25,732 nucleotides of DNA, taken from the IMG/VR virus record IMGVR_UViG_2791355071_000005, positions 1 to 25,732 of that record; one strand, written 5' to 3'. The notes beneath the pieces are model-generated. The model saw only the letters and a program-made list of their open reading frames with translations. It did not search any database and had not been told where the DNA came from. Shown here in pieces: positions 1,364 through 13,906 of this stretch. The stretch comes from a virus. Within the stretch, counting starts at the first letter, position 1. Each line of letters opens with the position of its first letter. The translations under genes were made by a program, and so were the position numbers.

Positions 1364-3064
1364 ATGAATCAGGACGTTCTTAGAGACTTTGCCGACCAAC
1401 TCGGCGTCGAGGAAGACGTTATCGAGGATCGTTGGCAGGGGCGTCCTGATCGGCTGGCGGAGGACATTTTCCAGATTCAGGACATGGATTCCGGCCTGAT
1501 CCGAGATTTGGAGCTGTTCGACACCCAGAGGAAGGCCATTCACGCCTATTTCTACGGGGACGCCGACACGATTAACAACTACAAGGGCCGGCGTATCGGC
1601 TATTCGTTCGTTTACGTGGTCGCCTTCCTGCTGGAAGGGATGTTGGTGCCGAACTCGGTCTATCCTATCGTTTCTCGGAAGTTCGAGCAGGCCACCAACC
1701 GAATCAACGACATTCAGAAGCTGATCGACAACGCGAAAGTCGAGATTCCGACCGATAAGGACAATCGGGACGAAATTATCCTCTGGAACGGCTCCAAGTA
1801 CAAGGCGTATTCCGGCGATCCCGACGCCTCTCGGGGAGACGACTCCGCAAGAGCCGTTCTCCTTGATGAAATGGCCTTCATTGAGAACCAAGAGAAAGTC
1901 TCGCGGGCGTTTGGTGCGTTCCTCGCGCTCGGGAAGGGCCGTAAGATGGTCCAAGTTTCGACGCCGAACGTCGAGAACGACCTATTCATGTCTACCCACA
2001 GACGCGGGTCGCCGAATGGGTACGACGAAGACGGCAATCGGATTGGCGTTATCTCGATCGAACAGCCGTCGTTCTGGAACGCCGAGGAGATCGACGTTCA
2101 CACCCCGCTGACGCAACAGGAGACGCGGCCGGTGCGGCCGGACATGAACATCGAGCGGATCGAGGAGGAGAGAGCGGCCGATCCCGAGGGTTTCGGACAA
2201 GAGTATCTCTGTCGTCCGATTGTGGACGAGTATCGGTTCTTTTCGGTCGAATCTATTGAGGGGGCGATGGAGCGCGGCGAGAAGGCGTCGTTCCTCACCG
2301 GCCTCAACGTCCCGAATAGGGCGGATCTTCGTGTTCTCGGGGTGGACATTGGCATCAGCCACGACGACACGGTGATTCAGGTGTTCGATCACATTGACGA
2401 TCGACGTCTTCACCGCTACTCGGAGGTAGTGACCGACGATCTGCTTGGAGACCACGGCTTCCAGAATCCGGATCGGGCGAACGCGGAGCAGGTGGTGGCT
2501 CGGATAGCCTACGTGTTCCGGCAGATGGACGCGGATCTGGTCGTTCTAGACCGGACGGGTCCGGGGGAGACGTTCGATCGACAGTTGACGGCCAAGCTCG
2601 GCCGGGCGGTGGTCGGCTTCAACTTCTCTGACAAGCGGAAGGTCGAGGAGATGATGGGGGACATGAACAGCGCCCTGCGGAACGGGCGTGTCTCTCTGAT
2701 TCCGGATGACCGCTTGAAAGACGAATTATCGTCTATCATCAAGGAGAAGAAGGAGGATTGGTCCGTTCCCAAGTTTTCTGGGAAGGACAACTCCGAGACG
2801 GGGAAGGACGACACGGCTATGGCGGCTGTGTTAGGGGCCTTCCCGCCTGGTTATGCGGTCGCGCCGGGACGGAACGCTGATCAGCGTTCGACAGCGGCTC
2901 CAGAACCCGCTGAAAGCGGTGGAGGGTCGGAGCCACCGCGACCGGACCCAAAACAGGCCGCCGCGAAGCCGGCGTCCGGGGCGTGCGGTGCGGCTCGGGT
3001 ACGACAACGAGGCGGTGGGTACAGACGCGGTTCTAACTACAGCTCGCGCCACTCTCGGCGCTAA
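1364..3064 (+). CDS. terL: Terminase large subunit
   Basis: Walker A-like YKGRRIGYS, Walker B VLLDEMAF, motif QVSTP, and RNase H-like nuclease acidic motifs LGVDIG, LDRTG and KDDTAMA. Confidence 0.93.
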   Translation: MNQDVLRDFADQLGVEEDVIEDRWQGRPDRLAEDIFQIQDMDSGLIRDLELFDTQRKAIHAYFYGDADTINNYKGRRIGYSFVYVVAFLLEGMLVPNSVYPIVSRKFEQATNRINDIQKLIDNAKVEIPTDKDNRDEIILWNGSKYKAYSGDPDASRGDDSARAVLLDEMAFIENQEKVSRAFGAFLALGKGRKMVQVSTPNVENDLFMSTHRRGSPNGYDEDGNRIGVISIEQPSFWNAEEIDVHTPLTQQETRPVRPDMNIERIEEERAADPEGFGQEYLCRPIVDEYRFFSVESIEGAMERGEKASFLTGLNVPNRADLRVLGVDIGISHDDTVIQVFDHIDDRRLHRYSEVVTDDLLGDHGFQNPDRANAEQVVARIAYVFRQMDADLVVLDRTGPGETFDRQLTAKLGRAVVGFNFSDKRKVEEMMGDMNSALRNGRVSLIPDDRLKDELSSIIKEKKEDWSVPKFSGKDNSETGKDDTAMAAVLGAFPPGYAVAPGRNADQRSTAAPEPAESGGGSEPPRPDPKQAAAKPASGACGAARVRQRGGGYRRGSNYSSRHSRR

Positions 3065-3075
3065 ATCTATTCTAC

Positions 3076-4515
3076 ATGGGCGACATTCAGGACGAAATAC
3101 TACAAAAGGCCAGTAATGGCACTCTGCCGGGACAAGAGTATCCTGGACAGTTCGCGCTCGATTCGCCCAAAGCGGTTGTCAGGCGGGCTTCGGGGCAGGG
3201 AGGGAAGCCCCGTGAATCCGAGGCCCCGGAAGCGAAGATAGCGGAGTACCGCCTTATCGCCGATACCGATCCCCACGTTGGGGAGGCCATTGATACGCTG
3301 GTCGATTACCTCGTTGGTTCGGGCTACAACATAGCACCCGCGAACATCGTGGGGACCGACGAGGAACAGACACCGGAAGACGTTGCTCCGATGAAGCAGT
3401 TGGTGGAGTCGTCGGACTTTGAAGAGGTCTTGTTTCAATGGGTATGGCACGCTCTGGTTGACGGAACGGGGTTCTTGGAGATTGTCGTCGAGGACGACGT
3501 GTTCAAGCCAAAGGTTCTGCCGACCGAGCTGATGGAGATTCAGGCCGACAAGTTCGGGAACCCGGTTGAGTATATCCTTGAACCTCCGACCGGCAACGAG
3601 ATCAAGTTCAAGCCATACGATCTCGCGGTACTCTCGTTCCACAAGCACCCTGGCGAGGACTTCGGAAGGAGTCTGATCGAGCGGTGTGAGGAGCAGGCGG
3701 ATATGCTCCGGGACATGGAAATCGACATGGCCCGGTTTATTGCGACCAAGGCCTATCCGCCCGTGATTTGGAAGCTCGGGTCGGACGAACGCCCGTGGAC
3801 GCAGGATCAGATTGACGGCTGGCTCGATACGGTTTCGGAGATCGAGCCGGAGTCCATGCTGGCGGTCGGCCACGACGTTGACCACGATATTGTGGGCGTT
3901 ACCAGCACGTCGTCTACCAGCGGCGCTATGCGGCTGGAACCTGTCTTCCACCACCTACTTCGTCGTATCTTCACGGCTCTCGGCCTTCCTGCCTTCCTGG
4001 GCAACATTACCGGAGACGAGACGAAGAACGAGGCCGTCGCGGTCATGCCGAAGTTCGATCGGCGGATTCAGCGATACCGGCGTATCATCAAGTCAGCCAT
4101 TCGCCACCAGATCTTCGTTAGTATCCTTGCGGGAGATTCGGACCCTGCGGAGGCTAACGTTTTACCGCCCGACTTTGAGTTCGGCCAGCACTCCAGCGAG
4201 GAGGAGCGGCTGGACACAGACATGGCGATCAAACTGGTGAACAATGGTCTACTCACTTTCGAGGCCGCCGCCGAGCGAATAGGAATTGACCCAGAAACGG
4301 AGCTTCCCCAGGAGGGGGATTTGGACGAGCATATCATCAAGATCCAGCAACTCGCCGGGAAGGGGGATAACATTCAGAACCCCGATGGTGGCTACCCGAC
4401 CGATACCGGCGGTGGAGCCGAGTCGGCAGGTGGTGAGGTGAAGACCCGACAGAATCCGGAGCGAGATACTTCTGGAGGCAACAGCCGCAATCAGCAAGCC
4501 CAGACGGAAGCATAA
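3076..4515 (+). CDS. Portal protein
   Basis: 479 aa directly after terL. It has portal-like segments (HALVDGTGFLE, HPGEDFGRSLIE, ALGLPAFLG) and a low-complexity C-terminus. Confidence 0.85.
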   Translation: MGDIQDEILQKASNGTLPGQEYPGQFALDSPKAVVRRASGQGGKPRESEAPEAKIAEYRLIADTDPHVGEAIDTLVDYLVGSGYNIAPANIVGTDEEQTPEDVAPMKQLVESSDFEEVLFQWVWHALVDGTGFLEIVVEDDVFKPKVLPTELMEIQADKFGNPVEYILEPPTGNEIKFKPYDLAVLSFHKHPGEDFGRSLIERCEEQADMLRDMEIDMARFIATKAYPPVIWKLGSDERPWTQDQIDGWLDTVSEIEPESMLAVGHDVDHDIVGVTSTSSTSGAMRLEPVFHHLLRRIFTALGLPAFLGNITGDETKNEAVAVMPKFDRRIQRYRRIIKSAIRHQIFVSILAGDSDPAEANVLPPDFEFGQHSSEEERLDTDMAIKLVNNGLLTFEAAAERIGIDPETELPQEGDLDEHIIKIQQLAGKGDNIQNPDGGYPTDTGGGAESAGGEVKTRQNPERDTSGGNSRNQQAQTEA

Positions 4516-4518
4516 GAG

Positions 4519-4791
4519 ATGTCAAACGACAAGAGAGATCCGTTTGACTTCAAGGCATTACAGCGGGAGGAAGAATCGGCTATCCTTCACCGGCTGGATG
4601 AGCGAACCGAGCGTATAGACAGTCGAATCGAACGAATGGACGGGCGGGTTCAAGAGCAGGACGTTCGGCTCTCTGAACACGACGACAGGATACAACGAAA
4701 TACGACTATCATCAATGCGATCACTTTCGGCTTTGGTTCGTTTGTCGCCGCTGTCATGGCGAAGTTAGGCGGGTTTATACGGATATTCTAA
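4519..4791 (+). CDS. Small coiled-coil protein with C-terminal hydrophobic anchor (XhlA/holin-like architecture)
   Basis: Heptad-like RLDERTERIDSRIERMDGRV...LSEHDDRI followed by the hydrophobic segment IINAITFGFGSFVAAVMAKLGGFI. Confidence 0.6.
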   Translation: MSNDKRDPFDFKALQREEESAILHRLDERTERIDSRIERMDGRVQEQDVRLSEHDDRIQRNTTIINAITFGFGSFVAAVMAKLGGFIRIF

Positions 4792-4792
4792 C

Positions 4793-5434
4793 ATGGATAG
4801 CGACGTTAAACAGCAAGAAGGCGACGAGGCGAGCGTGGGGTGGAACATTACGTTCTCGCTCCCGGAGACGGTCGTTGATTCGCTTGACGAGGGATTCAAC
4901 AAGCACGGGGTTCGGGAACACGACGACGGTTCTATTGATGTTATTTTTGCGGCGATGGAGCCGGGCGTCCGACGCGGCGTGGAAGTGACCGATTCGTTCC
5001 TCCAGAACGTTTCTCGTCACAACTACGGAAGACGTCTTCCGCTTCAGTTCGACCATTCGCGCTCCCAGAGAGCGAACGTCGGCTGGATTGACCCGGAGAA
5101 CGTCAGGTTCTCAGACGGGTTCTTGCGGGTGATGGCTCACATTCCGAATACTGGTTCTCAGATTCGGACGGACACGATTAACGACTTTACCCACGACCCG
5201 CCCGCGATCAGCGACGGATCGGTTGGGTTCGACCCCCGGACGATCGAGGTCGAGCGACCTAGCGAGCGCGGGGAAGACCCGGTGTTCGTTGACGCCCGGC
5301 TTCAGGAGTTTAGTTTGACTCCGTTCCCGGCCGGGTACGACAACGGTGGGCTGACGCCTGCCTTTTCCGAGGTAGTCGGCCAATCTATGACCCCCGTTTG
5401 GGGCGAGAGTCGACTGTTGGCCCGGAAAATCTGA
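4793..5434 (+). CDS. Prohead (capsid maturation) protease
   Basis: Candidate catalytic motifs LQFDHS (His), DGSVGF (Ser) and LQEFSLTPFPA. It lies between portal and scaffold. Confidence 0.8.
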   Translation: MDSDVKQQEGDEASVGWNITFSLPETVVDSLDEGFNKHGVREHDDGSIDVIFAAMEPGVRRGVEVTDSFLQNVSRHNYGRRLPLQFDHSRSQRANVGWIDPENVRFSDGFLRVMAHIPNTGSQIRTDTINDFTHDPPAISDGSVGFDPRTIEVERPSERGEDPVFVDARLQEFSLTPFPAGYDNGGLTPAFSEVVGQSMTPVWGESRLLARKI

Positions 5435-5457
5435 CAATTATCTACTACTGATTTACT

Positions 5458-5940
5458 ATGTACGAGTTCAGTCTTGACACGCCCGTTGAGGATCTGGACG
5501 AAGCGGATCTTCGTTCGACCCTCGACGAGTTCATGGAGAAGCACGAGGAGAACGTTGAGGAGTTTTCGGCCGTGGAGGCCGACCGAGACGAGTTCAGCGA
5601 GAAGGTGGAAAGCCTTGAGGCGGAGGTTTCGGAGTACGCCGAGACTGCCGGGGCGCTCCAGGAGAAGTTCGCGGAGGTCGTCGCCGAGGAGAGTCCCCTG
5701 TTCGACGCCGATGAAGTGGCCGAGCGGTTCTCCCTTGAGGAACTGATTTCGAAGGCCGACGCCCTCGGGGCCTTCTCGCTGGCTACGGAAGTCGGCGAGG
5801 CCGCTGACGACGATGCCGAGGAGAGCGAGGGTTCGACCTTCGCCGACAAGCCGGAGCGCGCTACTGTCCCCGAGGACACCAAGACGAAGTTCCGCGAGCA
5901 GGCCGAGAGCGACCTTCGGGCCGTTCTGGGCGATTACTAA
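5458..5940 (+). CDS. Probable scaffolding protein
   Basis: 160 aa, extremely acidic and helical/coiled-coil, between the protease and the capsid genes. Confidence 0.6.
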   Translation: MYEFSLDTPVEDLDEADLRSTLDEFMEKHEENVEEFSAVEADRDEFSEKVESLEAEVSEYAETAGALQEKFAEVVAEESPLFDADEVAERFSLEELISKADALGAFSLATEVGEAADDDAEESEGSTFADKPERATVPEDTKTKFREQAESDLRAVLGDY

Positions 5941-5959
5941 ATTTTCTATCTGATTTTCA

Positions 5960-6430
5960 ATGGCCCACATTCGCATTGCGACTGGTGCTGAACAGCCTAT
6001 CAACCGTGACGCCGCCGTGTCCCAGCTTGCCGGCGAGGAAGGCGATCTCGTTGGCATGAATCCAGACGGGGATTGGGTGGCCGCCGACGCCGACTCTGGG
6101 GTTGCCCAGAAGGCGTCTGGTGTCCTTGCGGCTCCCGTCACCGACCCCGCCGACTTCCCGAACGAGGAACTTCGTATTATCGTTGAGAGCGAGCGCGAGC
6201 TTGTCGGCGATACGCGTATTGCCGTCGTGAAGTACGGTGTCATTCTGGAGAACGCCGACGAGGATTGGGGCTTCACTCCCGGCGAGCCTGTCTATCTCGG
6301 CCCCGGTGGTGGCTTCACCCAGACCAAGCCCTCGGCGGTTGGCGATCTCGTTCAGGTCGTCGGCGAGGCGACGGATGACGGCGAGGCGGTGTTCCTCGAC
6401 GTTGAGACCGGCTACGACGTTGTGGCCTGA
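5960..6430 (+). CDS. Probable capsid decoration/minor capsid protein
   Basis: 156 aa, Gly/Val-rich beta-type sequence (GDLVGM...AADAD; PGEPVYLGPGGGFT...GDLVQVVGEA), immediately upstream of the MCP. Confidence 0.7.
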   Translation: MAHIRIATGAEQPINRDAAVSQLAGEEGDLVGMNPDGDWVAADADSGVAQKASGVLAAPVTDPADFPNEELRIIVESERELVGDTRIAVVKYGVILENADEDWGFTPGEPVYLGPGGGFTQTKPSAVGDLVQVVGEATDDGEAVFLDVETGYDVVA

Positions 6431-6467: not shown

Positions 6468-7448
6468 ATGGCTAACCCTTCGCGGAAGCGCGAACTGACG
6501 ACGAAAGACGACGTGCCGCTGTCCGACCTGCTCGGCTACGGTATGGAATTGATTGAGACTTACCGGGAGGCACCCCGGACCTTCCTTTCTACCTTCACTC
6601 AGGAGGTCTCCAGCCGCGTCTTCATGGCCCGCACGGGCGACATGACGTGGAACGAACTGGCGGAGATGGAACACGCCCGCACGGGTACTCTGGACCGGAG
6701 CCAAATGGCGTTCTCGGTCAAGTCCTACGGACGTTCGCTTGGCTACTCGCGTGAGTTTATCGAGGACAACCCCTCGGAAATGCTCCGCGAGGAGATGGCC
6801 GCGATGATTCGCGGTGCCGACGACAAGGAGTTCGAGGTTCTGTTCGACGTTCTCAAGAACGGTGTCGCTGACGGCACCGAACTCTGGTACATTCCACAGG
6901 ACTACGCGGGACAGTCGTTCTCGAACACCCATAACCACACCTACGCCGACACCGAGGCGCTGTTCGGTGACGCGAACGGCCACGCGGTCTCGGATCACAT
7001 CCGCGCGGCGAACAAGGATCTTCGGGAACACGGCTACCGCCCGGTGGTCGCGCTCGTTTCCCATGACGTTGCGGCCGAGGCGGTCGCGGCCCGAACCGAT
7101 GGGCAGAACTACCACATCCCCGAGGCCGAGGGGCTTCGTGAGGGCGCTCTGCCGGAGCAGACGCTTATCGAGGACGGCGTTCGACTCGTTCAGACGGCGT
7201 GGCTCAACGGTGACGAAGCACAGGACGTGTACGTTATCTCCCAGAACGGCATGAACGGCGCTCCGATTAAGACGAACTACCCGCGCCCCGTCGAGCTTAC
7301 CGACAACACGGGCGCTCCGATCGGGGGCGCTGGTGGCTCCTACGGCGACCCGGCGGCCCTTCTCGGTGCCTACGGCTCCATGCGGATGGGCGCGAAAATG
7401 GCTGACCCGCTCGCGGCCGTCAAGTTCACCGCTGACAACATCGCGTAA
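6468..7448 (+). CDS. Major capsid protein (HK97-fold expected)
   Basis: 326 aa with strongly biased codon usage, in the canonical position. It contains YGRSLGYSREFIEDN, typical of this capsid class. Confidence 0.85.
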   Translation: MANPSRKRELTTKDDVPLSDLLGYGMELIETYREAPRTFLSTFTQEVSSRVFMARTGDMTWNELAEMEHARTGTLDRSQMAFSVKSYGRSLGYSREFIEDNPSEMLREEMAAMIRGADDKEFEVLFDVLKNGVADGTELWYIPQDYAGQSFSNTHNHTYADTEALFGDANGHAVSDHIRAANKDLREHGYRPVVALVSHDVAAEAVAARTDGQNYHIPEAEGLREGALPEQTLIEDGVRLVQTAWLNGDEAQDVYVISQNGMNGAPIKTNYPRPVELTDNTGAPIGGAGGSYGDPAALLGAYGSMRMGAKMADPLAAVKFTADNIA

Positions 7449-7470: not shown

Positions 7471-7818
7471 ATGACACACGAATATTCTAAGGAAGACCTG
7501 ATTCGGATGGGGCGGTCAGAACTTCGGGCCGCTCACGGTCTTAACAACGACTCTGAGATTTCTGACGAGTTTCTGGTCGAGCAGATCGAGGCGTTCGCTG
7601 ATGAAGTGTACGCCGAAGTGGGCTACGAACCGGATCTTGGACCGGGAACCCCCGGCTATGACGCGGTTCGGTTCTATGGCCTCATTCGGGCGGCGTACTT
7701 TTTGAGTCCCGAGACCGGACCTACGTCGATCAGCCACGCTCGGCGGTTCGACTACGAAGACGATCAAACACTCATTCATTGGCGTAACCGCTTGGTGCGG
7801 GCGCTTTCTACCCTCTAA
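7471..7818 (+). CDS. Head-tail adaptor-like protein (paralog of the next gene)
   Basis: Follows the MCP and shares an E-x-RA...ISD-x-x-L-x-E...E-x-x-A-x-x-G pattern with 7818..8237. Confidence 0.5.
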   Translation: MTHEYSKEDLIRMGRSELRAAHGLNNDSEISDEFLVEQIEAFADEVYAEVGYEPDLGPGTPGYDAVRFYGLIRAAYFLSPETGPTSISHARRFDYEDDQTLIHWRNRLVRALSTL

Positions 7819-8602: not shown

Positions 8603-10360
8603 ATGGTTACATTTCGCGTTGACGTAGACGGCAAGAAGGTCGGCCGTCAAATCAAGCGTCGTATTGAGGACGGCGTTGACTCGGCGGCTGACGACATCAA
8701 CGACGAAATGCGGCAGGTGGCGAAAGGGAAGATTCGTTCAGAGAACGCGATATTTACTCGGGAGCTGATCTCTGAGTTCACCGACGCCAAGGTGACGTTC
8801 GGAGACAGCACCGTTGCGTCTCTCCGAAACTTGGCTCAACACGCTCCGTATCAGGAGGAAGGGGTAAGCGGAACCCAAGTTCAGCGAGATACCCCCTACA
8901 AGTACAAAGACAAGAAGCCGCCGCTGGATTCGCTGATTCCGTGGGTGATCGAGAACCTACAAGGGTCGTACTGGCCCGACGATCTCGGTGACCCTCCGGC
9001 TGGATTCTTCGATCCTGATGGCCCAGCACCTTCCGGCAGTTCTCGTTCTTCCGGGTCTGGTGGCGTTAACACGTCTTCAGATAGCAACTCCGGCGTTCCG
9101 ATAGACGAAGACCGGCTGTACGTTGAAGAAGACGGCTTCCGGTCTCATGGTCGGAACGAGGAGTTCTACGGGGACGAACTGTACCCGAATCAGCGAATTG
9201 TCGTCTTCAACGAGAACGAGAAGGAGTACCTTCGGGCGACTATCAAGACGTTCGGTAGTTCGGACCAGTCGTTCAAATTTGAATTAGACGACGTTGACGG
9301 CTCCTTATTCAAACTCTCTAATAACGGGGCTGGACCGTGGCGACTCATAGCGACGGAGGTGTGGGAGGAACTTGACGAAGAAACCCAGCGGGAACGGCTG
9401 GCTGGGTACTTTGACGACTTCATTTCCACCAGCTATCAGTCGTGGCTCCAGCCGAGCTACAAACAGAACTACGGCATGACGGAGCCGGATCCGTCTGCTA
9501 TTGAAAGTGCCCGAGACCTGTGGACTGGTCCGATTTTCGATCGGTACAAGGACAAGTCCGTTGTACGAGAGCAGGTGCGGAACTTTGAGGCGATCGTCTC
9601 GCCGTCGAATCAGAGTCTACAGAGCAACCCTACTCGGGGTGGTGCGATTCTCGATCTCGACGGAACGACTCGCTTTGTCGGTCTCTTTCTGTCCGACGAC
9701 CAGTTTGCGAACCTCTCTCATTGGAGCTTAAGCGACCGGCGAATGGTGTTGGGACATGAAGCCAAACACAGTCTTAGTTCGGTTCTGGGATACGCAAGAA
9801 CCGGAGATTCGACGTACAAGGCGCTGTTAACGAGTTCCGAGTGGAACCCGTCTGGTCTTCAAACGAACGCCGATCCAGAGCTTCCGTCCCACGCCGAGGA
9901 ACTGCTGTTCAGAGATAACGATAACAGCGGGAAGGTGCTGGGCGGATTGGGGTGGCTGAAAGACGCATACTCCGCCGCGGAGGGTGGCGAAGACGGAATT
10001 GCGTCCTACCAGCCAGATATCGAAACAGGACGGGACCAGCCGTATAGACGGCTTCACGAAGCGGCGAATCGCGTCTGGTGGCTTCAAGCAGTTGCTGGGC
10101 GCGATCTCTATCGAGAGAAAGGCGACCTCACGGAGATAAACGACGCCAGCATATTCGTTCGGAGTACGTATAGTGCCCAAAATGCCGCTGAAACTCTCGC
10201 TACGCTTGAGGAAGTCATGTGGGGAGAGTGGGACGAATGGGAAGACCGACTAGAGTATCTGGTTGCGTTGTACCCGTGGTTCGTTGAGACGTGGCTGGAC
10301 GGCCATACCCCCCCAGAAAAGGTCAAAGACTTCTTGATAGAACTCGGAGTTGAGGTATAA
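8603..10360 (+). CDS. HK97-gp10-like neck protein N-terminal part fused to a zinc-metallopeptidase-like region
   Basis: aa about 1-125 carry neck motifs HAPYQEEG and KKPPLDSLIPWV. A Gly/Ser linker follows, then HEAKH (aa 385-389, nt 9755-9769) and STYSAQNAAETLA (aa 521-533). Confidence 0.75.
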   Translation: MVTFRVDVDGKKVGRQIKRRIEDGVDSAADDINDEMRQVAKGKIRSENAIFTRELISEFTDAKVTFGDSTVASLRNLAQHAPYQEEGVSGTQVQRDTPYKYKDKKPPLDSLIPWVIENLQGSYWPDDLGDPPAGFFDPDGPAPSGSSRSSGSGGVNTSSDSNSGVPIDEDRLYVEEDGFRSHGRNEEFYGDELYPNQRIVVFNENEKEYLRATIKTFGSSDQSFKFELDDVDGSLFKLSNNGAGPWRLIATEVWEELDEETQRERLAGYFDDFISTSYQSWLQPSYKQNYGMTEPDPSAIESARDLWTGPIFDRYKDKSVVREQVRNFEAIVSPSNQSLQSNPTRGGAILDLDGTTRFVGLFLSDDQFANLSHWSLSDRRMVLGHEAKHSLSSVLGYARTGDSTYKALLTSSEWNPSGLQTNADPELPSHAEELLFRDNDNSGKVLGGLGWLKDAYSAAEGGEDGIASYQPDIETGRDQPYRRLHEAANRVWWLQAVAGRDLYREKGDLTEINDASIFVRSTYSAQNAAETLATLEEVMWGEWDEWEDRLEYLVALYPWFVETWLDGHTPPEKVKDFLIELGVEV

Positions 10361-10662
10361 TGGTGTGGACTCTCCGGCTCTATGACGAGAACGGGGTTGA
10401 GATTGGGTACGTGGAAAAACCCGATCGAGAGACGTACAACTACGCGATTACCCACCCCGAACCGGACTGGGAGAACCTGGAGAGGCGGCTGAAAAACTAT
10501 TGGACGCTCCAAGTCGAGGAAGACTACGGAATGGATAGTCCAGAGTGGACGGCCGATCACGGCCCCATGACGTTACCGAGGCCGCCCGAAGAACATCTCC
10601 GACTGATACAGGAGCGCCTGTCTCACCCGGCGGTTGCGGATACTGAATTGACGGACGAGTAG
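10360..10662 (+). CDS. Hypothetical 100-aa acidic protein (candidate inhibitor/immunity protein)
   Basis: ATG overlaps the TAA of the peptidase fusion gene (TAATG). No recognised family. Confidence 0.65.
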   Translation: MVWTLRLYDENGVEIGYVEKPDRETYNYAITHPEPDWENLERRLKNYWTLQVEEDYGMDSPEWTADHGPMTLPRPPEEHLRLIQERLSHPAVADTELTDE

Positions 10663-10676
10663 CCCCCTTCTTGCCG

Positions 10677-10859
10677 ATGACGGTTGATTTAGACAGCCTT
10701 GACCCAGCGGTGCGTGAGCTTGCCTTCTGGTTACAGGACAAAATCTACAGAGAGGGTATTGAGGGGATCCACTTCATGCGGGACGCCCGGCTGTGGGCGG
10801 AGGACAACGCCGCCGACGTAACGGCTCGGGAAATTACGAAGGAGGTTAACAAGCTGTGA
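10677..10859 (+). CDS. Separate C-terminal part of the gp10-like neck protein (60 aa)
   Basis: LAFWLQDKIYREGIEGIHFMRDA matches the A-F-x-I-x-x-x-I-x-x-x-G...F-x-x-x-A ending typical of gp10-like neck proteins. Its stop overlaps the next GTG. Confidence 0.6.
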   Translation: MTVDLDSLDPAVRELAFWLQDKIYREGIEGIHFMRDARLWAEDNAADVTAREITKEVNKL

Positions 10860-11368
10860 AAGAACAGGAAATCATTTTTAAAGCTGTTTCTGACCTACAG
10901 GCGGCACTCCCTTCTGCGTATCCGGTTCGGACTCGTGGTGGAGACGCTGGGGCCGGCCCTCCGTTGTGTCTTCTTGGCTGGGATTCGACCCGACTCGGCG
11001 AGAATGGCGCGAACCCACTCGCCGGAATTGTCCGGGATGAGGGTGGAACTGCGACCGGACGCGAGCTTCATCGGTATCATCTGATGGAACTGGATGTGAC
11101 GATCCGCACGTATGATGAGAGTGACCGCGACGTGTTGCTTTCTGACGTAGCTGACGCCTTCCTGCCGTATGAGTACGACGCGTCTGTTTTCCACGACGAC
11201 ACAACTGAGTGGGAGATCGGTGACCCCTCGCCGCGATCGAATCCCGTGGTTGAACCCGACTGGTACGAAGGAGGGCTGACGATTCGGTTCAGATACGTAA
11301 GCCGGGTCGAGCAGGACGCCAGCGCCCTCACGTCTACGGAATACACCGTGGACGGAAGCGGAGTATAG
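10856..11368 (+). CDS. Tail terminator/tail completion protein
   Basis: 170 aa with an alpha/beta pattern (MELDVTIRTYDESDRDVLLSDVADAF), directly upstream of the sheath gene. Confidence 0.65.
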   Translation: MKEQEIIFKAVSDLQAALPSAYPVRTRGGDAGAGPPLCLLGWDSTRLGENGANPLAGIVRDEGGTATGRELHRYHLMELDVTIRTYDESDRDVLLSDVADAFLPYEYDASVFHDDTTEWEIGDPSPRSNPVVEPDWYEGGLTIRFRYVSRVEQDASALTSTEYTVDGSGV

Positions 11369-11402: not shown

Positions 11403-12698
11403 ATGGTTACTATTGGAAGCACTACCCTTCCGGGAGTCCAGAGCAACGTTGAATCTGCGTCCAGCGCGGGCGTTAACGTCAATGCGGCGGCTCAGGTCGG
11501 ACTCGTCGGACAGGCAGACTTAGCGAACGGAACGGCGGAAGCAAACACGGTCTATTCGGTCACGACTCCGGTGAAGGCCCGAACGTGGTTCGGTGAGGGA
11601 TCGCCACTTGCGGAGAACTGTGTTGACGCTCTCACCGAAGGCGCATACCCGGTCTACGCGGTCGCACCGGAGCGGGTTTCGGTGGACGGAGAGGATCTAT
11701 CCGGCCTTGGTTCCACAAGCGGTGTTCTGGAGAACACCCCCGGCCCGGAAGAAGCGTCGGCGTACTCGTTCTCGGTTGATTCGACCGAGAAGACTGCGGT
11801 TGTCACGATGGACGACCCCAGCACGAAGTCTCCAGGAACGGACGAGGTGTACGTTAACCCCGTGACTGGAGAGTTTGAGCTTGACGCCGCTCCCAGCACG
11901 TCGGGGTCGGCTGATTACGCGTACTTCGATTACCCGAGCGCGACCGAGACCCTGTACTCGGAGGAGGCTGACCGGCTCGATCTCGTTGGTGTCCTGAACG
12001 AGAACGGCGATGTTGTTTCGGACGCCCACGACGAGGCCAAGGAACACGAAAGCCGGTATGAGTTTACGGTCGTGGTTGCTGGGGCGGCTCCCCGGCTCAC
12101 GACGACCGGGTACACCAACCCGTTCGACTCGTCCCGCGTCCAGTTGCTCTACCCGAGCCGGAACGCCGACGACGAGAGCATCATTGGGTCGTACATCGGC
12201 CTTCGGGCGGTTCTGGGCATCAACAACAGCCCGATGTGGAAGCGGCTTCAGACCCAGCGCGACCTTTCGGAGACCCTTTCGAAGTCTGAACAGCTTGAGC
12301 TGATCGGCGAGAAGGTCGTCCCCGTTGCTGATGAGAGTCGTGGGGCGCGTATCGTGGAAGACCTGACCTGTGTTAGCGACGAGAACTCCGAGGAAGACGC
12401 CATGCGACAGGTGCTTCACCGGCTTATCGTTGACTACGTTACCGAGGTAGTCTACCGCACTTCGGAGCGGTTCATCGGCGAACTTCACACGCAGGCGGCC
12501 CGCAACGCCCTGTCGACGATTATCGGTGGGGAGATGGACCGGCTTCTGACTCAGAACTCGATTCTGGACTACAGCGTGACCGTCGAGAAGGTTGACGCCA
12601 TGACCGCTTCGGTGGACGTGGGGATTGACACGGTGGACCCGCTCCGTAACATTCTCGCCACGATTGCGGCCGGAGAAGTTCAGCGAACGTTGGCCTAA
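11403..12698 (+). CDS. Tail sheath protein
   Basis: 431 aa. N-terminal LPGVQS...VGLVG...FGEGSPL and C-terminal RLIVDYV...RFIGELH...VDVGIDTVDPLRNI are typical sheath motifs. Confidence 0.9.
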   Translation: MVTIGSTTLPGVQSNVESASSAGVNVNAAAQVGLVGQADLANGTAEANTVYSVTTPVKARTWFGEGSPLAENCVDALTEGAYPVYAVAPERVSVDGEDLSGLGSTSGVLENTPGPEEASAYSFSVDSTEKTAVVTMDDPSTKSPGTDEVYVNPVTGEFELDAAPSTSGSADYAYFDYPSATETLYSEEADRLDLVGVLNENGDVVSDAHDEAKEHESRYEFTVVVAGAAPRLTTTGYTNPFDSSRVQLLYPSRNADDESIIGSYIGLRAVLGINNSPMWKRLQTQRDLSETLSKSEQLELIGEKVVPVADESRGARIVEDLTCVSDENSEEDAMRQVLHRLIVDYVTEVVYRTSERFIGELHTQAARNALSTIIGGEMDRLLTQNSILDYSVTVEKVDAMTASVDVGIDTVDPLRNILATIAAGEVQRTLA

Positions 12699-13215: not shown

Positions 13216-13692
13216 ATGAGCGCATCCAAAGGCAAACTGTACGACATGTGTGTTCGCGGCCGTGACTACCGCGAAGACTACGATCTCGAAATGATGGGCG
13301 AGGAAGTGATTGCTTCGCTGGCCCCGCTGGCAGACGAACACTTCCTGCCGATCTCGGCGTTCCTTAAGGAACACATCGGCATTGACGAGGAGGAGGCCGT
13401 CGAGGCTGTTGAGGAGGCAAAGGAGCAAGCCGAGGAAGATGGCGAAGACTCGATCGACATTTCGAAGATGGACGAGGAGTTCGTTATTACACTCCAGAGA
13501 GCGGCAATTCTGGGTATCAAGGGGTCTTACGATGAAGACGGAGATCTTGTTGAGTACGACGAAGACGACGCCCGGAAGATGGTCAAGATGATGGTCGGCG
13601 GCTACTCCGTCGAGCTTGGCGGAAAGGTTCTCGAAATCTCGGGTGATGTTCGGGACGCCACGAAATTTCGTGGAAGCCGGGGAAGCGTCTAA
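13216..13692 (+). CDS. Tail assembly chaperone (short form)
   Basis: 158 aa, acidic, between the tube and tape measure genes. Confidence 0.75.
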   Translation: MSASKGKLYDMCVRGRDYREDYDLEMMGEEVIASLAPLADEHFLPISAFLKEHIGIDEEEAVEAVEEAKEQAEEDGEDSIDISKMDEEFVITLQRAAILGIKGSYDEDGDLVEYDEDDARKMVKMMVGGYSVELGGKVLEISGDVRDATKFRGSRGSV

Positions 13693-13906
13693 GGTAGTCG
13701 CTCTACTTGACGCTGGGGTTCCGTTGGTGGAATCCCAGAAGGACTTGACGCCGTTTCAGCGAATGGTTCTGTTGAAGGAACTTGAGCGGCAGGAACAGGC
13801 GAGCCAATCCGGTCAAACCCAGCGGCCCGGACAAGTGAACCAGTTACGTCAGCCCCGTGGCGGGGGCGGCGAGACGGTGACTTACGTTAACGACGGCGGC
13901 TCGTAA
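13216..13906 (+). CDS. Tail assembly chaperone, +1 frameshift-extended form (predicted 229 aa)
   Basis: In-frame AAA-TTT-CGT at 13663-13671. The +1 frame is open from 13670 to the stop at 13906, and its first ATG (13763) is well downstream of the overlap. Confidence 0.6.

Follow-up and report, generated by a model that had tools for sequence, protein, structure and literature searches.

A predicted two-module neck protein occurs in fused, abutting and cassette-separated forms in haloarchaeal tailed viruses

Results

The window analysed in this work, a stretch of 25,732 nucleotides (nt; G000:C44:867-26598), lies as a provirus inside a 3.3-Mb haloarchaeal genome, and its structural module is of the Hafunaviridae-like haloarchaeal myovirus type. 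We deal here with three consecutive genes of that module (8603-10859, plus strand), two of which appear to encode the separate pieces of one neck protein. The first is an open reading frame (ORF) of 585 amino acids (aa; 8603-10360, stop codon at 10358-10360), whose end overlaps, through a TAATG motif, the start of a 100-aa ORF (10360-10662). The third is a 60-aa ORF (10677-10859) with an ATG of its own, whose product begins MTVDLDSLDPAV and is predicted to form a two-helix hairpin. The closest cultured virus, Halorubrum tailed virus 25 (HRTV-25, Laminvirus), has an identical gene layout, and its gp19 (581 aa), gp20 (105 aa) and gp21 (60 aa) are each annotated as hypothetical. The TGA stop of the 60-aa gene shares bases with the GTG start of the next gene (GTGA at 10856-10859), which encodes a 170-aa, SPP1 gp17-like tail-completion protein (10856-11368, plus strand; phrog_12281, E 1e-24, and the annotation of HRTV-25); the same type of overlap between these two genes was present in L005, L020, L021 and L022. 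A preliminary description of this DNA had listed the ORFs with their sequences, the ATG of the small gene and the GTGA overlap, all of which we confirmed, coordinates included.

That description had also read the 60-aa ORF as the continuation of the N-terminal part of the 585-aa ORF and had proposed a search for single-ORF homologues of about 190 aa. Such homologues exist: P0001, a 190-aa protein found by a search limited to longer proteins, and six further clusters. Homology to the single chain of P0001 bore the continuity out, as P0001 aa 4-136 aligned with residues 2-134 of the 585-aa ORF (BLASTP, 65% over 133 aa, E 3e-61) and aa 138-190 with residues 8-60 of the 60-aa ORF (75% identity over 53 aa, E 3e-29). 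Since the alignments end and restart at these points, the segment absent from P0001, hereafter the cassette, corresponds to 9005-10676 (1,672 nt). Eight metagenome contigs, from four or more samples, carry P0001; genes of 115, 139 and 120 aa precede it there, and those for tail completion, sheath and tube follow. Used as query in an exhaustive HMMER search, the 60-aa protein returned six more fused clusters, of 163-204 aa, carrying the C-terminal module (C-module) at their C-terminus, as well as nine standalone clusters of 60-73 aa; genomic context was examined for two of the six further fused clusters. These six (P0006, P0007, P0008, P0010, P0011 and P0013) share 33-39% identity with P0001, and the inter-module linker of the fused clusters varies from 11 to 46 aa with the modules conserved on both sides. 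A P0010-based search for related loci in viral contigs found nothing. Taken together, these homologies support the correspondence of the two ORFs to the two modules of one protein in other viruses.

The N-terminal module (N-module; aa 1-134 of the 585-aa ORF, 8603-9004, plus strand), delimited by the BLASTP alignment to P0001, is located between an SPP1 gp16-like head-completion gene and the tail-completion gene and is a putative HK97 gp10-like neck module by way of transitive homology only. The window's own N-module had no Pfam match even at E<=10. The N-module of L029 matched PF04883 (HK97-gp10_like) with 25.9 bits (cut-off 21.4; E 2e-5), those of P0006, P0011 and P0010 stayed below this cut-off with 20.4, 18.2 and 15.7 bits, and the homologue in HRTV-27 is annotated as "HK97 gp10-like protein". 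In the homologues, positions 11-78 of the 78 of the PF04883 profile correspond to residues ~13-95 of the N-module. The profile thus ends near residue 95, upstream of residue 134, which implies that the gp10-like core is complete and not interrupted. Although the cassette had been described as lying in the middle of a structural gene, no known core domain is broken by it, as the PF04883 core is contained wholly in the N piece.

In the AlphaFold 2 (AF2) model of the fused P0001 (mean predicted local distance difference test, pLDDT, 70.9; predicted TM-score, pTM, 0.41), the N-module consists of a long helix, a beta-hairpin and a helix; it is followed by a linker (122-139) and by the two helices of the C-module (140-156 and 163-189). 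VIA-align retrieved only generic helical hairpins with this model (Z <=5.3), so that the gp10-like fold was not confirmed structurally, and Foldseek gave no match below E 1e-3 for either AF2 model, that of the long protein or that of the fused P0001. An 11-residue insertion (SGTQVQRDTPY) at aa ~88-100 of the N-module was seen in the clade of the window, HRTV-27 and L029, and was absent from HJTV-3, L021/L024, L026/L027 and the deep fused forms; it could be used as a clade marker.

The 60-aa protein is 88% identical to gp21 of HRTV-25, whereas the long protein shows only 47% identity to its counterpart in that virus. It matched phrog_31935, a standalone family with a 68-position profile (E 9e-14), and the position of its start methionine is constant among the split forms. 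The small gene thus behaves as an independent, constrained gene, with a conserved ATG of its own and a stop codon that overlaps the start of the tail-completion gene, as the preliminary description had stated for the downstream piece. The small Hafunaviridae products of 53-73 aa labelled "hypothetical proteins" are thereby identified as the C-module, a detachable part of the gp10-like neck protein.

Hidden Markov models of the two modules were used to score architectures in 11 further proviruses, collected from 400 Halobacteria genomes, and in cultured viruses and contigs from metagenomes and IMG/VR. The sample resolved into three forms, fused, abutting and cassette-separated, which together make up a real family of two-piece neck proteins. 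In the cassette-separated form, the long, partner and small proteins measure 585/100/60 aa in the window, 581/105/60 in HRTV-25, 586/105/60 in L020, 716/103/60 in L021, 718/103/59 in L024, 821/99/73 in HJTV-3, 814/99/73 in L025 and 644/96/68 in L027; the partner is absent from L035/L036 (long and small proteins of 706 and 59 aa) and from L026 (445 and 68 aa). Most of the clade to which the window belongs has its modules separated in this way, and across the cassette forms the intervening segment has a size of 1.3-2.7 kb. The abutting form has no cassette, and the stop of a short gp10-like gene overlaps the start of the small gene (139/53 aa in HRTV-27, 126/59 in L022, about 130/59 in L023, 140/58 in L029 and 131/60 in L033). 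Fused single chains have 190 aa in P0001, 204 in P0006, 195 in P0007, 193 in P0008, 204 in P0010, 203 in P0011 and 163 in P0013. Module order was constant at all the fused, abutting and cassette loci examined, and only the cassette was ever found in between. As an observation that would speak against a split gene, the preliminary description had named beforehand a short, complete upstream gene accompanied by an independent small gene, and this is what five lineages contain, with small genes of 53-60 aa. A contiguous homologue covering both parts does exist, alongside these abutting two-gene forms.

At the abutting junctions of HRTV-27 (L002, at 3854), L022, L029 and L033, the two genes overlap by 1-8 nt and lie in different frames, and a single-base change or a ribosomal frameshift there would give a fused chain.

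The cassette starts with a low-complexity linker rich in Gly, Ser and Pro (aa 135-~174; 9005-9124, plus strand), in frame with the N-module, whose pLDDT is below 50 up to aa 161 and whose length and sequence vary among homologues. The extension of the long protein (aa 162-585) is predicted to be well folded, with AF2 pLDDT values of mostly 85-97. It comprises a small Tudor/SH3-like beta-barrel (aa ~175-257; 9125-9373, plus strand; pLDDT about 85-93), whose resemblance to Tudor/chromo barrels is at the level of the fold only (VIA-align Z 5-6.2, 55-85 residues aligned), and a zincin-like domain (aa ~258-585; 9374-10360, plus strand) with an HExxH motif at aa 385-389 (nt 9755-9769) and a Glu at position 486. 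All 12 long homologues share one HExxH domain and differ in their inserts alone. Across 11 long homologues H385 and E386 are invariant and H389 is kept in ten (the motif of L026 is degenerate); the nearly invariant E486 is, on conservation alone, a candidate third metal ligand.

The best VIA-align match of the zincin-like domain was 3dl1, a putative metal-dependent hydrolase (Z 7.5, 172 aa, root-mean-square deviation 4.2), followed by the lethal-factor catalytic domain 1yqy (Z 7.3), 4l7a (Z 6.9) and PPEP-2 (6fpc, Z 6.7), values that are in the middling range for this program. Foldseek with the long-protein model gave E-values of 0.1 or higher. No sequence-profile match of the domain was found in Pfam, NCBIfam or PDB sequences, and a profile of the long proteins retrieved only a low-complexity match from the PDB sequences (E 1.4). 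The best scores of an ESM Atlas search with aa 140-585 (0.84) lay within what chance gives, and its Peptidase_M90 and Phage_min_cap2 rows are leads only. The domain is like the MtfA, lethal-factor and Pro-Pro endopeptidase zincins in its HExxH motif, in the conserved downstream Glu on a helix and in its best fold matches, and unlike them in having no sequence-profile match and middling Z scores. On this basis, "peptidase-like" seems a reasonable label for the extension.

The 100-aa partner gene, coupled to the extension by the TAATG overlap, had no match in Pfam or PHROG, and its homologues occupy the same place in HRTV-25, L020, L021, L024 and L028. Homology between the partner subfamilies, that of the window and that of HJTV-3, was considered and rejected (hhalign probability 2.6%, BLASTP E 0.43). 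In L035/L036 (IMG/VR UViG_3300000386_000006 / 3300000427_000006, 2375-4674), the 706-aa protein keeps the usual C-terminal end and is joined to the 59-aa small gene by a stop/start overlap; because these loci carry the extension without the partner, the partner gene is not obligatory for the extension. The 445-aa long protein of L026 (G173, oriented 4506-5843) is truncated, most of its C-terminal helices are gone and the second His of HExxH is lost (HEFEV), so here the peptidase-like domain looks like it is decaying while still fused to an intact N-module. L028 (G271:C1:333594-341246, ~5665-6399) is a decayed remnant in which a 103-aa partner homologue is followed by a 132-aa ORF (P0005) that begins as a C-module and continues into unrelated sequence; neither the N-module nor tail genes were found nearby.

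Two 11-nt motifs at the edges of the cassette (8989-8999 and 10700-10710, plus strand) had been taken for a junction repeat that might allow its exchange or deletion. The motifs do exist and match at 9 of 11 positions, but their significance did not hold, as a match of this quality was reached in 151 of 500 shuffles and in 192 of 493 random pairs of 71-nt windows (30-39%). In relatives the best junction match lands on other motifs, the repeat not being conserved. We thus consider it a chance match with no functional part and rejected it as a recombination or target-site signal, which leaves repeat-mediated exchange or deletion unsupported. Similarly, DLGDPPA and DSLDPA do not represent a duplication, since both are separate native stretches in single-chain relatives; P0008, for instance, carries both EFTDPGPDG and LQQYDPAVV. 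The guanine-cytosine (GC) content of the cassette (0.535-0.57, vs 0.54-0.57 in the adjoining neck genes) is without anomaly, and a recent foreign origin was rejected on this ground. No nuclease match was found in the cassette in Pfam or PHROG, and its folds, the beta-barrel and the zincin-like domain, include no recognisable mobile element.

The cassette is common to the cultured viruses HRTV-25 and HJTV-3 and to many proviruses, and its identity among lineages is 23-55%. In the cassette tree the window groups with P0021 and then with P0022, HRTV-25 with L020 and P0024, L021 with L024, and HJTV-3 with L025, P0023 and L027 each standing apart; this topology broadly agrees with that of the N-module tree. 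The divergence, the matching trees and the unremarkable GC content indicate that the cassette is old and was mostly inherited with the neck gene. A recent insertion is unsupported, given that the cassette is widely shared, follows the N-module tree and matches its flanks in GC content.

The fused L005/P0001 was placed by the N-module tree in the starred clade (100/99) together with the cassette carriers (the window, HRTV-25, L020, P0021 and P0022). An independent tree of the tail-completion and sheath proteins placed L005 in the starred clade (100/99) with the window, HRTV-25, L020 and L032, whose upstream state is not known. Because it is nested among cassette carriers, the 190-aa chain of P0001 is most simply explained by a secondary in-frame deletion. 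The nesting of this nearest fused relative in two trees points to deletion and away from an intact ancestral gene. In the tail-completion and sheath tree the abutting L022 is sister to the cassette-bearing L035 (100/97). At least 5-6 state changes are required overall, and the segment is therefore dispensable and often lost.

Discussion

In this work we compared the neck locus of a haloarchaeal provirus with those of its relatives, and we consider it probable that 8603-10859 is the three-gene form of a two-module neck protein, in which the arrangement is old and mostly vertically inherited, the segment in the middle has been lost repeatedly and the two pieces meet in the neck. This explanation is built on the homologies of both pieces, on the existence of three architectures, on the start of its own that the small gene has conserved, and on a segment that is old and has been lost more than once. 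According to it, the 60-aa protein would be translated on its own, probably co-produced with the tail-completion protein by means of the GTGA overlap, and would join module N non-covalently in the neck. A pairing of the small protein with the gp10-like module is inferred because natural fusions of the two recur. The peptidase-like extension might be an accessory decoration hung from the neck on the flexible Gly/Ser linker, and the several losses of the accessory segment would have left two genes that abut or, in the case of the 190-aa relative, are fused in frame.

Several points weigh against this explanation. The trees are unrooted, with several deep nodes unresolved, and recombination might mimic vertical descent; the placement of P0024 conflicts mildly between the N-module and cassette trees. 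The deep and diverse fused forms (six clusters with <50% identity) would fit an ancestral single chain equally well. In addition, the pTM of the fused P0001 model makes the relative placement of its domains uncertain, and module N was modelled poorly by AF2 as a monomer.

The same deep-branching, diverse single chains (P0006, P0007, P0008, P0010, P0011 and P0013) are what would be expected if the locus had arisen by insertional fission, an explanation that we hold possible, although clearly less likely. Here an ancestral chain of ~190-200 aa would have received the peptidase and partner segment in its inter-module linker, with an in-frame fusion to the upstream half and a new start downstream, the abutting and 190-aa forms being later losses. 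In support of this idea, the cassette invariably coincides with the module boundary and the small gene starts at a constant position in the split lineages, which fits one splitting event, and in the N-module tree the cassette carriers L026/L027 branch within fused forms (94/86). However, no mobility gene, repeat or compositional trace of an insertion was found, the Pfam gp10 core is uninterrupted, five lineages have a short complete upstream gene adjoining the small gene, and the only close fused relative of the window falls within the cassette carriers. An in-frame join on one side plus a new start on the other also calls for more coincidences than the accretion of an extension at the stop codon that separates two genes. 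For this reason we lean slightly, with respect to the primordial state (one chain or two genes), towards separate abutting genes and a C-terminal accretion on the upstream one.

A precedent for insertional fission is the nrdA gene of Aeromonas phage Aeh1, which is organised as nrdA-a / mobE / nrdA-b and whose halves reassemble (PMC3045599; review PMC2988022). As in Aeh1, a protein that is a single chain in relatives is encoded in the window as two ORFs around extra coding DNA, and reassembly without splicing would be expected. In contrast to Aeh1, the intervening DNA contains no homing endonuclease or mobility gene, the main intervening ORF continues the reading frame of the upstream piece, and the split is also found without an insert; moreover, the contiguous form is not shown to be ancestral, the closest one looking derived.

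A related and somewhat more doubtful proposal is that the linker between the modules is an ancient accessory slot, where a non-mobile cargo of peptidase and partner would have split a single chain whose halves still come together in the virion, the cargo being shed or swapped time and again by recombination in the conserved flanks, with abutting genes or a rejoined chain as the outcome. If true, a gene in pieces would have been made and kept without a homing endonuclease. The interpretation offered in the preliminary description was half right. A two-piece family with an old slot at the module boundary is borne out, and a recent insertion and repeat-mediated excision are not supported.

It could be argued that the 60-aa gene is merely the next independent gene of the neck module, and that the fusions found elsewhere are incidental read-through of abutting genes. 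The match of the small gene to a standalone PHROG family, the standalone form of 59-73 aa in about 10 of the 11 further provirus matches, and the stop/start overlaps of the abutting forms, which a 1-nt change could fuse, would agree with this. Nevertheless, the fusion is retained in at least seven clusters with <50% identity, variable linkers and conserved modules, and a fusion kept in so many diverged clusters argues for a functional pairing of the modules. The module order, constant at the loci examined and interrupted by the cassette only, is likewise hard to reconcile with incidental read-through, which we therefore regard as improbable. Finally, removal of the 1.7 kb from RNA, protein or DNA (as an intron, an intein or an excised segment) to give a contiguous ~190-aa chain has the existence of the contiguous 190-aa relative as its only point in favour and is hardly credible, because the pieces are separated by a stop codon, a second ORF, an untranslated 14-nt spacer and a new ATG, which excludes an intein, every long homologue has the extension as a conserved, well-folding region read in the frame of module N, no split form has lost the Met of the small gene, and the junction repeat is no better than chance.

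The three-gene form of the neck protein, the explanation that we prefer, can be compared with the Type 1 neck module described as Ad1-Hc1-Ne1-Tc1 (Virfam), whose Ne1 proteins are reported to range from 56 to 231 residues (PMC4362835). The locus has the same order of adaptor-like, SPP1 gp16-like, gp10-like, SPP1 gp17-like and sheath genes, the gp10-like module being equated with Ne1 on position only. In the literature searched we found no description of a gp10-like module with a 450-aa enzyme-like extension and a detachable C-module of ~55 aa, and the main text of the study of cultured relatives by Liu et al. 2021 (PMC8651126) does not contain the terms "gp10", "neck" or "metallopeptidase".

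With regard to the extension, a comparison with toxin systems is pertinent. MuF-type polymorphic toxins are structural phage proteins with a C-terminal enzyme or toxin domain, followed by a small coupled gene. The long protein resembles them in its virion-anchoring N-terminal module, its enzyme-like C-terminal part and the small coupled gene downstream. It differs from them in that no unrelated domains are exchanged at the C-terminus, L035 and L026 lack the partner, and a neck protein is not obviously injected. A polymorphic toxin/immunity module was considered and rejected, on account of the one shared HExxH domain, the absence of the partner from L035/L036 and L026 and the lack of detectable homology between the partner subfamilies.

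The locus is a variant of gene fission/fusion and of C-terminal accretion on phage structural proteins, both of known kinds, and the value of the analysis is in annotation and in an evolutionary point, no new mechanism being involved. It provides a natural series in archaeal tailed viruses in which one essential component of the neck is encoded as one chain, as abutting genes or as genes split by an enzyme-bearing segment, and the cultured HRTV-25, HRTV-27 and HJTV-3 allow a direct comparison of the forms. It also flags a predicted zincin-like domain tethered to the neck in haloarchaeal viruses.

Other features of the window

Upstream, the 585-aa ORF adjoins the SPP1 gp16-like head-completion gene, and three genes (115, 139 and 120 aa) separate it from the major capsid protein gene (6468-7448). 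The sheath gene (11403-12698) lies beyond the tail-completion gene. The 115-aa gene (7471-7818), located between the capsid gene and the 139-aa gene, is also present in L005; it had no Pfam or PHROG match, and HRTV-25 has none annotated at that place. Further downstream, the region at ~13216-13906 of the window corresponds to the tail assembly chaperone region of HRTV-25 (8613-9300), for which, as for those of HRTV-27 and HJTV-3, GenBank records a programmed -2 frameshift; a +1 shift reaches the same frame as -2.

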